DNA of 64,000 nt. Source: Octopus vulgaris. Its lineage: Eukaryota. The stretch spans positions 87,296,001 through 87,360,000 of the forward strand of contig OX597825.1 of the NCBI GenBank assembly GCA_951406725.2, in the 5' to 3' direction. The position numbers were made by a program, and so were the translations under genes. The notes below the pieces were generated by a model. The model ran no database searches. It was not told where the DNA came from and saw nothing but the letters and a program-made list of their open reading frames with translations. Of the stretch, positions 2,990 to 58,922 are shown in pieces (the first letter of the stretch is position 1; each line of letters starts with the position of its first letter).

Positions 2990-3168
2990 GCTCCTGCACG
3001 CATTCTTTTTCTCTCCTTGTTTCTCTGCTTGTTTCTTTTCTGTGTATCTTTCTGTCGAAGAGCGTAGGCTCGAAACGTAAAAGACTTGTTCTATTTCTAT
3101 TCCTGAGCACCATACTAATACAATTGTTTGTTTGTACTCCACCTGACTTCGTCTTTTGTTTATTTTCG

Positions 3169-3175
<7 letters not shown>
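2990..3175 (+). mobile_element. Short interspersed repeat (Penelope pseudo-LTR/retrozyme-like) with hammerhead-like motif; second copy at 57398-57570 in opposite orientation
   Basis: Reverse-complement similarity to 57398-57570 over about 170 bp; abuts (TA)n. Confidence 0.65.
3047..3084 (+). ncRNA. Minimal type-I hammerhead-like motif, CUGUCGAA core
   Basis: UCUUU-CUGUCGAA-GAGC GUAG GCUC-GAAA-CG-UA-AAAGA; 5-bp stem I, 4-bp stem II, palindromic ACGU, GUA triplet. Confidence 0.6.
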
Positions 3176-4610: not shown

Positions 4611-7362
4611 AATCAATCGCAACATAGAATTCACTATTTTTGAAAGCTCTTCCCCGCCACGCGTTTTCATAAATCACAGCTCTTCAGAAAATTCATGTCT
4701 TTAAAGACATGAATTTTCTGAAGAGCTGTGATTTATGAAAACGCGTATATGAACAAACAAAAAAGGAATTAATTTGGTCTCTAAAGGAACATAATAAACT
4801 TTTTGGTGTGCAATAGAATATTCTATCTATATCCTTTCCATATGATAAAGGTAAATCTTTTTGTCCGCTCTGTAACGAAGAACAATATCTCATTCTGTTC
4901 TCGGAGAATTCTCTTCTTACTTTTCATTTCCACTAAATATATTTATTTCCACGCTTTTAAGCTTTCTTTCCATTCAACTATTGCACTATATTTCTCCACT
5001 CTTGATTTTCTATTAATTTCTTTCATTCTCCTCCTTCTCTTTCTCTAAATTTTCTTTGACCTTAAATCTATTAACGGTTAAAAAAAAAACAACTTTCCAG
5101 CATTCCCCTTCATCATATACGCGGTAATCACATTCAATTAAAATGGCTTATTGATGTGTTTTATTTCTCATTTTTTCCTTGATGAGGTGATTGCATTGTT
5201 TTACCCCATTTTATTCCCCCTGGAATAATATCTATGTTTTCTTCGAAATATATGTCGGGAGTATAAAGATTTGAATAACACCTGAGTTTAACTCCATTTC
5301 TTAATTTATCTATGTACTTATTTATATATACGATGTTGGGGTGAATTATATCAATATATTACATAAAACATTATAGCACGCATACACATGCACATACAAA
5401 TGGATTTCTATATTCCTGTATAGTTTGTGAGATGGACACGAAGCAGCTGAATCGAAATATATTATCTGATTTACGCGAGGTGTTCAGTGATAATCTAAAA
5501 ATATTCGCAGCTGTTATGAAACTACGTTCAATTTACACACATTCGTCCACGTTTCTTTCTTTGTCTGTTCAGAAGTCTGGGAATAGCTGTGTGTGTGTGA
5601 TTGTGTACGCGTGTGGCGATGTGTACGTGTGTGCATGTGTGTGAGGCTGATTACGTGTGAGTTGTTGCGTGTGTGCTAGTTCAAGAAAGGGAATGCGAAG
5701 AAAATGAGACACAACGAGTTTCTCCTTTTGTTTTTCTTTACCTTCCTTTTCGTTTTCCTTCTTCTCACCCAGATATTTATTTCAGGAATCTTATCACTCG
5801 TTCTGGATAACTTTAGATTCTAGAGTTCGATTTTGCATCAAGTTCACTATTTCCAATTAATTCGATACCAGTTCTGCTGCGATACTCTCGCTAATTCAAT
5901 AGAATTATTCTGCTACGTTGGCATCAAATTATTCCTATTCAATAATATATAATTATATTCGAAGCCTATCATATTTCCATTATCTCTGGCTTCACTCAGG
6001 TTCACACCAAAAATCATTAGATTTTAACACTCTATAAGGAAAGAGGATTGGGTTTCAATACTCACAGCGGAATTTCAATAACAAAATCACGCATGAAATT
6101 TTAATAAAAAATAGTTATGAAATGATAATAAAAGACATTGCCTTCTTTAAGTGATATAGAAGAGCAGAAGAATAGAGTGCTACCTGCCGTCTCTGGCGTG
6201 TAATTATTCTTTCGTAGTGTGTAGCATATTTCGCTCTTTTAGATGTTTCTGTGGAAGCGAGCAGACACAGACAACCTCTCTCGACACCATTCCTACCCGG
6301 CGGCTTTATTGATTCTGCAGAACATCCCCAATGTGACCACTTGAGGTTCGACATAAGTTTAAACAACAAAACGGCTCGTCTGGGTATTGATTCTGAACAG
6401 ATACGTATACAATTGTAAAACAAAAGGGATTATTTTCAGAGAAGTAAGGAAATTTTAGAACAGATTTCAACGAGCGTCCAAAAAGGAAAAACTCGGGGTT
6501 CTCATTCACTTTTCATTCTTTAAAACAAAATAAAGTGTCTGTTTAAGTCTCATTTCTTCAAAACAAAACCAAAAAATACATTTATTGAGGTATTTCTTCG
6601 TGATTATATTCTTGTGTATTTCGGAAGCTCGTAAAGAATATAGAATATTTTGAAGTTGTGATAAGCTTTTGCAATAAATTAAAGAGGAAACAAACCTCAA
6701 GTGAATGGATTGATAAAATCTATTTTAATCCTTATCTTCTCTAAAGTTTCGTTCATGAAGTTAGAAATATAGAAATGTAAATTAATATGAAATGCTGGTT
6801 CATTTGGTTTATGCAAATCCTGCGAAAGAGATGATAACATAATAAAATGTATCAGCACAACTTCATTTTCGTCGTATTTCAACAGCGTTCTAAGTGAACC
6901 TATCCCTATTTTACGTGAGTCACATATCCCATCGAGTCCTGCTTGAATAGTGATGGATTATCAATGGAGTAACGTTTAGAGTATAACAGTGCTGTTTCTA
7001 AGGTCATAGTCCTTAACAGGTGACGTTCTTAAATGTCTATATAAACAACTACAGTGGAGCGAGTCGAGCAGACAAGGTCGAGGGGCGGCACACTGCTAAA
7101 AGTGGATCTTCGCTGTGAATTTTACAAGTGGCTCCATAAAACCGGTCTGGTTTGGAGTTCATCTCTGGTTTTTCTAATTTCATTTCTGCAGCTTTCATTT
7201 GTGAATTATTTCGTATTTTACTTGATATTACTATAAAGTTAAAATTTAGGATAACCATGGAAACAACAAAACACGCATGAAGGAGATCGTCAATAACGGA
7301 AAGTAAATAGGAACCTGCCAACAATGCGGGCTAAGTTTTAATAACAACAACAACAATATTAA

Positions 7363-9321: not shown

Positions 9322-9373
<52 letters not shown>

Positions 9374-9376
<3 letters not shown>

Positions 9377-9646
9377 AGAAATAAAAAATAGAAGTGTGCC
9401 ATAGTTATCATGTGAAATTGGTTGAACGATATTTCGGCATCTAGCGTGCCTTCCACAGGTTCAAAACTTATATGTCAGACTCCTTAATTTTTTGTTAAGA
9501 TTATATAGGACTGATGTAACTCATCCAGAAGTTATACAGAAATAAAAACAAAAGAGTGCCATAGTTATTATGTGAAGATAACTCTTCTATTTTTTTTATT
9601 TGTGTATAACTTCTGGAGGAGTTACCTCAGTCGTATATAATCTTAA
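9374..9646 (-). mobile_element. Penelope-like pseudo-LTR relic (partial tandem plus inverted copy)
   Basis: Direct repeat 9374-9416 vs 9535-9575; inverted repeat 9495-9557 vs 9581-9646; hammerhead fold at 9422-9464. Confidence 0.55.
9422..9464 (-). ncRNA. Minimal type-I hammerhead-like motif, CUGUGGAA core
   Basis: Reverse complement UUGAAC-CUGUGGAA-GGCA CGCUAGA UGCC-GAAA-UA-UC-GUUCAA; perfect 6-bp stem I, 4-bp stem II, palindromic AUAU, AUC triplet. Confidence 0.65.
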
Positions 9647-10700
9647 TAATGATAATAATAATAGTAATAATAATAGAAAATTACTTGTTTAGCAAATGAC
9701 AAAGATGTTCGATGGAATAAACCGACATCAGTAATTATAGGGTTTCGTTTCAAACACACGTTGCATCCATTGGACATAAAGGTCCGCAATTAAATTACCT
9801 TAATATATTTTATTATAGCAACCCTGTCATAAGCTATATACATCATTATCATCAGTGTATCATAATTATGGAGTAATTTGTGCCGTGTATTTATAGACTG
9901 TTTTAACTCTCTCTCTGATCTATATTAAAACAATGCATAAATAAACATCAGCAAAGAACGGAAATAATAGAGTGTCGGCCATTAGTTCTGAAAGTCGATG
10001 TCTGTGCTTTTGGTATAAATGTGCTAATGTGTCTACAGCGTAATTTTATCATAAGTTTGATATATACAAACAACTATAATAGGTTGTAATTGGTTGAATA
10101 GTTAATTAATTATAACATCGATATATATGATGTGGAAACACTTTCAGAAGTTCTCGCCTGTCAGCTTTTACCATGATTCTGTTCCTAAAACTCGATAGTT
10201 CACGCGCATAATTTGTTACCGAATCATAACTTAATTTGTAATTTCCATTATAATTTCCCGGGTAGACAGTGCACACTTACACCTATTTCCATCTAGAATC
10301 TGCAGCTCCATTATCAACTCACTTCAAAACTTTGTGGAATTACTTTGGCCGTAAATCGTGGGGCGAGATGATAATTTCACATGGTAAAGGTAAGCTGAGA
10401 TGAATAAATGCCATTATCTTTTGTAAATATATATTAGGAGCACTGAACTATTTCAAGACTATAATAATGGGCTTTATAACGAAAGAATCGATATGTAAAT
10501 TTAGTGGTAAGGACTTTAACTCCACATGTTAACATGTAAGTCAAAACTTCTGTCCGTGAACGAAATCTAGTTTGCTTGATGACAGAAAAGGGTCGAACAC
10601 AAACATGGGGAACTTAAAATATATCGATCCAAGATAAAGACTATCGCAAATAACTCGTCGTTATGAATCTTTTAAAACAAACAAGATTGCCTCAAATATT

Positions 10701-15086: not shown

Positions 15087-15316
15087 ATGTGTACATGTAT
15101 ATATTTATATGTATATATACTTATATATATATATTCACATACATGTATAAATATATATGCGTATAAATATATGTGTATATATATATGTATATATATATAT
15201 AGTAGTATTAACAGAAAAGAGGAATTTCGGTTGTCCCCACGTGGTGGACTGTAATGTATATAAGAAATTAAAAAAGGAAAATACGCACACTTACATGGTT
15301 ATAATATAATTTTTAA

Positions 15317-15353
15317 TATATCGACCGGTTTCGCAATCGCTATACATGATATA
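15317..15353 (-). ncRNA. Inverted copy of the minimal hammerhead motif (core AUGUAUA)
   Basis: Reverse complement reads UAUAUC-AUGUAUA-GCGAUUGC-GAAA-CCGG-UC-GAUAUA with a 6-bp stem I. Confidence 0.55.
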
Positions 15354-15984
15354 GTGTTTAATTTATATGAATATATATTTTTTCTTAAGAAGAAATTTGG
15401 TCCATGTTGTTGTAATGAAATTCACGAGTGAATGAATTTACAAGTTGACAAGTAAAGGGAGGTACATTGGACAAACGAGTTTAACTTTGAGGAAGAGAAT
15501 CACTCTGCATAAGGAGCAAATGCGTTTCTCGCAATACAGACAAATTCCTCTTAGTGAACACATAGAAAAATGTGCAGGTAACATCAAACCAAATTTTACA
15601 GTCTTCCCTTTCTACCAGTGCAAAGACACAATCTCTCAACTAGAACGCTTAAATAAAGAAACTTTTTTCTTTGAAAAATACAAAACGCATCTTATTATGC
15701 ACGCATAACCAACTTTTATATTTTTACATATTACATCACTGTACATAAATCCCCTATTAAACAAGGTCCCTTTTTTAAACCTGTCTCCTTTCTGTACACA
15801 TATTTATTCCCCACCCAAAACCTAAACAGTTATCTCCCTTACACACAACAATAACAATAATAACAACCAATTACCTCCTTTTACTTGTCAACTTGTAAAA
15901 TCATTCTCTCGTGAATTTCATTACAAACAACATGGACCAAATTTCTTCCTAAGAAAAAAATATATATTCATATAAATTAAATAT

Positions 15985-16021
15985 TATATCATGAATAGCG
16001 ATTGCGAAACCGGTCGATACA
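15985..16021 (+). ncRNA. Minimal type-I hammerhead ribozyme motif, A3-U8 variant core
   Basis: UAUAUC-AUGAAUA-GC GAUU GC-GAAA-CCGG-UC-GAUACA; stem I UAUC/GAUA, palindromic ACCGGU helix III, GUC triplet. Confidence 0.65.
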
Positions 16022-16082
16022 TTAAAAATCATATTATAACCATGTAAGTGTGCGTATCTTCCTTTTTTATATATATATATTT

Positions 16083-25542: not shown

Positions 25543-57105
<31,563 letters not shown>

Positions 57106-57397
57106 GTACGTTTTCATTTAAATATTCATAAAATTGATTTTCCTAAGTTATTGGAATCACAATCAGTTGATGACCCGTAGCGGAAATAATCTTGTGGTTC
57201 GCTGTAAAAGTATATTCATATTATTGGTATTAATTGCAGATATGTATATTTATACAGAGAGATATGTGAGAATGAAAGTGAGAGAGAGAGAGAGAGAATG
57301 AGAGAGAATGAGGCGAGTTAGTGAGGGAAACAGAGGCAGGAGAACAGAAAAGGTGTCGGTAAATGGTTGTGTTTGTTTGTATATATATATAGGGAGA

Positions 57398-57570
57398 ATT
57401 CACAAAGAAAACAAAAGACGAAAACAAGTGGTGTAGACAACAAGCAGATGTATTTGTCTAACGCTCGGGAAATGAAAAAGTATTTACCGTTTCGAGCCTA
57501 CGCTCTTCTACAGAAAGGAACACAGAAAGAAACAAGGAGAGAAAATAAAAAATGTGTAGTGCCTATAGGT
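57398..57570 (-). mobile_element. Second copy of the 2990-3175 repeat with degenerate hammerhead-like motif (57481-57518)
   Basis: Reverse complement contains CCUUU-CUGUAGAA-GAGCGUAGGCUC-GAAA-CG-GU-AAAUA; cleavage triplet and stem I decayed. Confidence 0.6.
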
Positions 57571-58803: not shown

Positions 58804-58805
<2 letters not shown>

Positions 58806-58922
58806 TTATGGCCATATCACGTTGAAAGCATCGGTTCTCGTCCGATCACCGAAGTTAAGCAACATTGAGCCTAGTCAGTACTTAGATGGGTGACCGTTTG
58901 GGAAACCTGGGTGCTGTAAGCA
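58804..58922 (+). rRNA. Full-length 5S rRNA-like sequence, probably a pseudogene or the head of a 5S-derived SINE
   Basis: About 119 nt GCTTATGGCCATATCACGTTGAAAGCATCGGTTCTCGTCCGATCACCGAAGTTAAGCAACATTGAGCCTAGTCAGTACTTAGATGGGTGACCGTTTGGGAAACCTGGGTGCTGTAAGCA; terminal stem and A/C boxes recognisable; no oligo-T terminator follows; solitary intronic copy. Confidence 0.9.

Follow-up and report, generated by a model that had tools for sequence, protein, structure and literature searches.

Is a hammerhead-like RNA whose core has lost the adenine at position 6 a family-wide variant of a mobile element, or the decayed state of one copy? A6 is treated as near-invariant in hammerheads, and the natural change that we found described is a single phage A6C. 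The question is raised by a window of 64,000 nt of Octopus vulgaris DNA (assembly GCA_951406725.2, contig OX597825.1, positions 87,296,001–87,360,000 of the forward strand), which is the whole stretch analysed here and contains two copies of a repeat designated family A. The window is AT-rich, with many microsatellites. Its forward strand carries exons of a neprilysin-like M13 peptidase gene (27644–27916 and 37608–38027), one of which (27671–27838) is 96% identical to Octopus bimaculoides and Octopus vulgaris proteins, the best 2 of 6 matches, as well as an isolated full-length 5S rRNA match (58804–58922, 106 bits) that could be a gene, a pseudogene or the head of a 5S-derived SINE. A near-perfect 88-nt palindrome at 4659–4746 is possibly a small foldback transposon remnant, and ORF pieces at 42517–43340, 53879–54400 and 54416–54940 resemble, by eye, decayed fragments of LINE-type retrotransposons; Pfam gave nothing firm on these three pieces.

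Table 1. Coordinates of family A, B and C features in the window (numbering from its first nucleotide).
Feature	Position	Strand	Description
Family A copy 1	3007–3172	+	U-rich 5′ flank, hammerhead-like module, ~92-nt 3′ tail, (TA)n end; 5′ limit approximate, contig depth climbing from 3006
Copy 1 hammerhead-like module	3047–3084	+	Minimal type-I fold, 38 bases
Stem I, 5′ strand	3047–3051	+	UCUUU, pairs with 3080–3084; weak, mostly U-A
Core	3052–3058	+	C3 U4 G5 U6 C7 G8 A9; U6 = 3055, N7 = 3056
Extra A after A9	3059	+	
Stem II and loop	3060–3071	+	GAGC/GCUC, 4 bp, tetraloop GUAG, closed by G10.1–C11.1 (G3060–C3071)
G12 A13 A14	3072–3074	+	
Palindrome in place of helix III	3075–3078	+	ACGU (A15.1-C-G-U16.1)
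A17	3079	+	Predicted cut 3′ of it, from hammerhead numbering
Stem I, 3′ strand	3080–3084	+	AAAGA
Family A copy 2	57390–57560	−	Different subfamily; ends at (TA)n; limits approximate
Copy 2 module	57481–57518	−	C3 at 57513, U6 at 57510, N7 = A
Family B motif	9422–9464	−	CUGUGGA + A (U6), 6-bp stem I, 4-bp stem II, palindrome AUAU, triplet AUC
Family C GIY-YIG endonuclease 3′ fragment, Penelope-like element	15436–15708	+	PF01541, E = 1.8e-4, just under the curated cut-off
Family C motif	15987–16019	+	Sense, ~280 nt past the GIY-YIG stop; A3–U8 core, A6, palindrome ACCGGU
Family C motif, inverted arm	15317–15353	−	Like the + arm motif, with U6

The module of copy 1 is built like a minimal type-I hammerhead (Table 1), and every element that the original prediction had assigned to this fold is found where it was placed. 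Both stem I (5 bp) and stem II (4 bp) are part of the predicted secondary structure. The C3–G8 pair, U4, G5, A9, G12, A13 and A14 are present in both family A copies, and copy 1 also has the A15.1–U16.1 pair and a GUA triplet that obeys the NUH rule; agreement with the hammerhead thus extends to the remaining core letters, A15.1–U16.1 and H17, the exception being the required A6, which is U in both copies. Measured against the minimal hammerheads (min-HHRs) of Penelope elements, copy 1 has the extra nucleotide between 9 and 10.1, the G10.1–C11.1 pair and a palindrome (15.2–16.2) replacing helix III, and departs from their core consensus CUGANGAH with CUGU-N-GA-A. Because A6 is absent and cleavage is predicted only, the family A module is not classed here as a hammerhead ribozyme.

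This architecture is rare by chance. A relaxed descriptor that accepts any Watson–Crick pair at 3–8 and leaves positions 6 and 7 free finds five matches in the window, four of them with a stem I of at least 3 bp; the mean number of the latter in shuffled sequence is 0.023 per window, with 7 of 300 shuffles containing one and none containing more. Folding energy alone is no better than that of shuffles (z = −0.04 and −0.84). None of the three Rfam matches over 3000–3170 (E up to 10) is a hammerhead, and a hammerhead at the copy 1 site is absent among the 150 listed of 288 window-wide Rfam matches. Approximately 35 nt downstream, at 3104–3109, lies a second GAGC, a potential competitor for pairing with the 3′ strand of stem II; at 3109 most of the family has G (88–96%).

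Two departures, A6U and the extra A, had been proposed to define together a variant core. The first stands; the second is standard, an extra nucleotide after A9 being a listed trait of Penelope min-HHRs that is found, by our count, in 54 of 56 published examples (PMC4209133). A6 occurs in all 56 examples in the part of PMC4209133 available, none of which is from a cephalopod, a figure that is partly built in because the descriptor used there fixed the core; family A has U6 instead, and, as anticipated, a standard CUGANGA search cannot find it. Natural core variants described in the available text of PMC3088659 include A6C, with no A6U found there, and a single CUGUAGA in PMC4191386 appears to be a typographical error for the usual core. 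No natural U6 hammerhead was found in the literature searched, outside which subscription papers, including Lunse et al., mostly lie, and the novelty of U6 is provisional. The motif strings are absent from paper full texts and supplements of PMC8557442, PMC13282606 and PMC8967140, and the word ribozyme occurs 0 times in the main text, as available, of the Octopus repeat annotation (PMC13282606).

A sister copy with the same core, differing at N7, had been claimed and is present on the opposite strand. The two copies are 78% identical over 143 nt and have approximately 165 nt in common; the 20-nt centre of the module occurs twice in the window, and 0 of 100 shuffles contain any match to it. Over 3048–3077 copy 2 equals copy 1 at 29 of 30 positions, N7 being the sole difference. 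As an intact fold the sister copy does not hold up: an extra G turns its palindrome into ACGGU, its stem I pairs 2 bp and it fails both descriptors. The statement that only position 7 varies is accordingly correct for positions 3–15.1 and incorrect outside them, where the palindrome and stem I differ. A (TA)n tract terminates both copies, 92–94 nt past the predicted cut; each represents an end, ~165 nt long, of a single Octopus repeat present in high copy number. No tandem partner is found in the window, the two copies being solitary and 54 kb apart, and no reverse transcriptase ORF or ORF remnant was found beside either.

Tabulation of the core positions across the family, planned as the key test of local decay, was carried out with contigs from 4 of 24 public runs, placed on 3000–3172 at 80% likeness and with a reporting floor of 2%. 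The runs yielded 13,300 (X1), 16,665, 5,514 and 933 (X8) placed contigs; X8 may be an RNA run, and its contigs do not count as evidence for expression. At 3055 (U6), an alternative letter reaches at least 2% of depth in 0 of the 4 runs, which bear three organism labels; this figure is a soft bound because placement is biased toward the reference, rows of CpG decay expected at 3056–3057 and 3063–3064 being absent. At the adjacent 3056 (N7), C>A accounts for 14–25% and C>G for 7–9% of depth, so that C, A and G are all observed and position 7 is free. With other letters below 2% at position 6 against 22–34% variation at position 7, U6, seen in all four runs, is the state of family A and not local decay of one copy. 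A family consensus with mostly A6 is ruled out for those copies whose similarity allowed placement. A hypothetical A6 variant would seed as easily as the neighbouring N7 variants. In X1, where 1,396 of the 13,300 contigs fit partly, none of the 24 loose ends listed falls at 3055–3057, and 356 more exist. At the flank mismatch rate of 0.23, a single site is ~77% likely to be unchanged, so that an invariant position 6 carries no significance by itself; constancy of 3058–3067 is not readable from placed contigs as a result of the seeding bias.

Elsewhere, flank sites 3088, 3091, 3109, 3123 and 3137 vary by tens of per cent, and variants at 3047 (8–19%) and 3083 (1–8%) disrupt outer pairs of stem I. 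G12 and its neighbours show 1–8% transitions at CpG sites (G12 G>A, 2–5%), which, as expected, fit decay of inserted copies. Depth is a sum over contigs rather than copies and was not converted into copy number; family A is very abundant, probably with thousands of copies.

The module is more conserved than its flanks, as both the mismatches between the two copies and the contig variation indicate. The copies differ at 1 of 30 module columns and at 27 of 117 flank columns (Fisher p = 0.017, for one sequence pair with gaps left out). Contig depth is maximal over 3054–3083, at about twice that of the 3′ flank in X1 and X5 and 4–10 times in X10 and X8, a peak that is in part a seeding effect. Differently flanked contigs enter the alignment at 3037 and 3048 and depart at 3087–3095, indicating that subfamilies with different flanks share the module. 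Loop II, whose conservation catalysis does not require, is as well conserved as the core, and conservation of the module does not show selection on U6 itself.

A control scan of metagenome contigs, with the same stem II and with positions 6 and 7 free, gave 121 matches at 120 loci among ~150 estimated. Position 6 is A in 114 of these matches, G in 3, C in 2 and U in 2; one U6 control (L037) is without a palindrome, and the flank of the other (L089) recurs beside a sister motif with A6 (L014). Further motifs in the flanks of control loci have A6 in 7 of 7 cases. Family A is not among the 121 matches, and searches with its patterns were empty both in viral contigs and in prokaryote genomes (0 stretches each). 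Among the control loops the commonest class, with 60 of 121 matches, is very similar to the Acropora Neptune motif (PMC4209133, Fig. S3), and at 2 of 120 loci (L007 and L033) a fragment of a Penelope-type ORF lies 5′ of an A6 motif, both on one strand. The layout is therefore that of the Penelope minimal hammerhead, with U6 peculiar to the octopus family. At another control locus (L055, 606–687), two A6 minimal hammerhead motifs adjoin each other in opposite orientation, an arrangement like that of inverted Penelope insertions.

Two further motif families occur in the window (Table 1). Family B, a single copy also with U6, is unrelated in sequence to family A, and its stems differ yet pair. 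The short insertion around it is inverted and duplicated and stops at (TAT)n; it carries an imperfect inverted repeat of ~160 nt (9492–9649) and a direct duplication of 44 nt (9534–9576 and 9373–9416). The family B pattern is found at 0 of 120 control loci and in two viral stretches; one viral match (L121) lies inside overlapping ORFs and looks like chance. Family C occupies 15269–16070, where a GIY-YIG fragment, 41% identical to the C-terminus of P0001, a reverse transcriptase-bearing protein that has a CX4CXXC linker, is set between inverted arms that are 94% alike. Both of its motifs have a 2-bp stem II and are without the extra base; its pattern gave 0 viral stretches. Automatic alignment of motif families A, B and C was uninformative. 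Families B and C make it more likely, short of proof, that position 6 is tolerant of change across the lineage. A weak hammerhead-like match from 40602 onward on the forward strand, with a U3–A8 core and no stem I, is probably chance.

Judged from sequence, family A is thus a genuine variant, shared across the family, of the core of an already known type of motif, and is built like a hammerhead. What it does is a matter of modelling, and we give a probability of about 0.5 to its being a slow, conditional, Penelope-derived self-cleaving RNA, dependent on dimers and probably on protein, that would cut after GUA. The module would lie near the 3′ end of a high-copy repeat that is likely the tail (3′ pseudo-LTR) of a truncated Penelope-like retroelement, a Penelope origin being suggested by the architecture, the 3′ position and the (TA)n ends; 5′-truncated copies would have inserted into microsatellites. 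Solitary truncated copies are the rule for Penelope min-HHRs (PMC4209133), and (TA)n preference as well as inverted or tandem insertions are described for Penelope-like elements (PMC8557442). As in the scheme of PMC4209133, the ACGU palindromes of two tandem copies would pair, form helix III and allow the cut after A3079. Loss of A6 would lower the intrinsic rate, and the protein of the element or ion conditions may offset this in vivo. Both window copies are probably dead-on-arrival insertions, and selection would have acted on master elements.

Precedents for activity point both ways. Natural A6C ribozymes keep activity, mainly in Mn2+, and A6C introduced into a fast ribozyme gives 3.55e-6 per min in 0.3 mM Mg2+ vs 0.18 per min in Mn2+ (PMC7151607); in a mutational scan, every single change in the CUGA region gave low activity (PMC9901934). 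Cleavage by the Anolis Penelope hammerhead needs protein, and this hammerhead is dispensable for insertion in vitro, with no RNA-seq ends at the cut site in the data available from the same study (PMC11167929). Counted in favour of cleavage are U6 fixed beside a free N7, which is the hammerhead pattern, the different but paired stems and different palindrome that accompany U6 in family B, and the A6 look-alikes 3′ of Penelope-type ORF pieces at L007 and L033; counted against it are the absence of the defining core base, the single copy of family B and the split of family C between A6 and U6 in its two arms.

A strong rival, although less probable in our estimate, is that A6 was lost from a hammerhead-derived structure that no longer cuts and is selected as a binding or packaging signal for a Penelope protein. 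It would account for a loop II as conserved as the core, and Penelope insertion in vitro is unaffected by hammerhead mutants (PMC11167929); on the other hand, the free site is exactly N7 and the triplet obeys NUH, as catalysis predicts. U6 can also pair with A15.1 and close the core: on 51 nt of copy 1, the modelled probability of a G5–N15.2 pair is 0.41–0.44, vs 0.01 with A6. On 69 nt, however, the open-core share is 0.20 with U6 and 0.12 with A6 in copy 1 (0.29 and 0.63 in family B). We dropped the proposal of a monomer kept closed by U6, its effect in copy 1 being lost between these two contexts and hence not robust.

Another explanation, which we consider quite unlikely, holds that U6 arose neutrally and by chance in one master, amplified since the ribozyme is dispensable, and that the conservation reflects the sampling of few lineages. 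Naiad Penelope-like elements reach high copy number without canonical hammerheads (PMC8557442), the two-copy test is one pair (p = 0.017) and seeding contributes to the depth peak; yet several subfamilies with different flanks share the module, and the unrelated family B, with different intact stems, has U6 as well, a letter found in just 2 of 121 controls. The last alternative, very improbable, is a signal acting at the DNA level, such as the polymerase III B-box of a tRNA-derived SINE; the conserved block would then resemble a hammerhead by coincidence. The 3′ strand of stem II followed by GAAAC resembles a B-box, which we counted for this alternative, as we did the abundance of SINEs in Octopus (PMC13282606). 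Against it, ARAGORN finds 0 tRNA genes in the window, an A-box at tRNA spacing is not seen by eye, the full descriptor has a null rate of 0.023 per window and an A6 version of this architecture lies downstream of Penelope-type ORF pieces.

A high-copy U6 family offers a natural test of how far the core tolerates change with the help of protein or ions, and of whether Penelope elements need cleavage. If the conditional self-cleaving RNA is active, the core consensus is wider than assumed and surveys undercount; if it is inactive with the fold kept, a non-catalytic role would be indicated. A tentative extension is that octopus Penelope-like elements might contain a lineage-wide U6 sub-class of several families, including one with an A3–U8 core, that act as protein- or Mn2+-gated dimers and of which CUGANGA surveys would have missed thousands of copies.

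Among known systems, the A6C hammerhead of phage Bcep176 (PMC3088659, PMC7151607) also has a natural pyrimidine at position 6 and is a slow, Mn2+-favoured precedent; unlike family A, it has C instead of U, is a single, non-minimal phage sequence that is not dimer-dependent, and is no high-copy animal repeat. Anolis Poseidon (PAc; PMC11167929) shares the Penelope minimal hammerhead and is a model for protein-assisted cleavage, but it was tested with its cognate protein and cleaves, and its element is intact, with the hammerhead at the pLTR–ORF junction. Non-LTR retrozymes (PMC7229834; bioRxiv 10.64898/2026.07.22.740005) share a non-coding nature, a type-I hammerhead motif and a proposed Penelope descent, and form tandem arrays with units of ~170–400 nt, whereas family A is solitary with microsatellite ends; identity with them was rejected, the two solitary copies in the window not being head-to-tail tandem units. 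Also close are the min-HHRs in pseudo-LTRs of metazoan Penelope-like elements (PMC4209133), which share with family A the type-I topology, a short helix I, the extra nucleotide between 9 and 10.1, G10.1–C11.1, a palindrome replacing helix III, a U-rich 5′ flank and mostly dispersed single copies; in that group, Acropora Neptune has the same layout as copy 1, with a 4-bp stem II, a 4-nt loop and ACGU.
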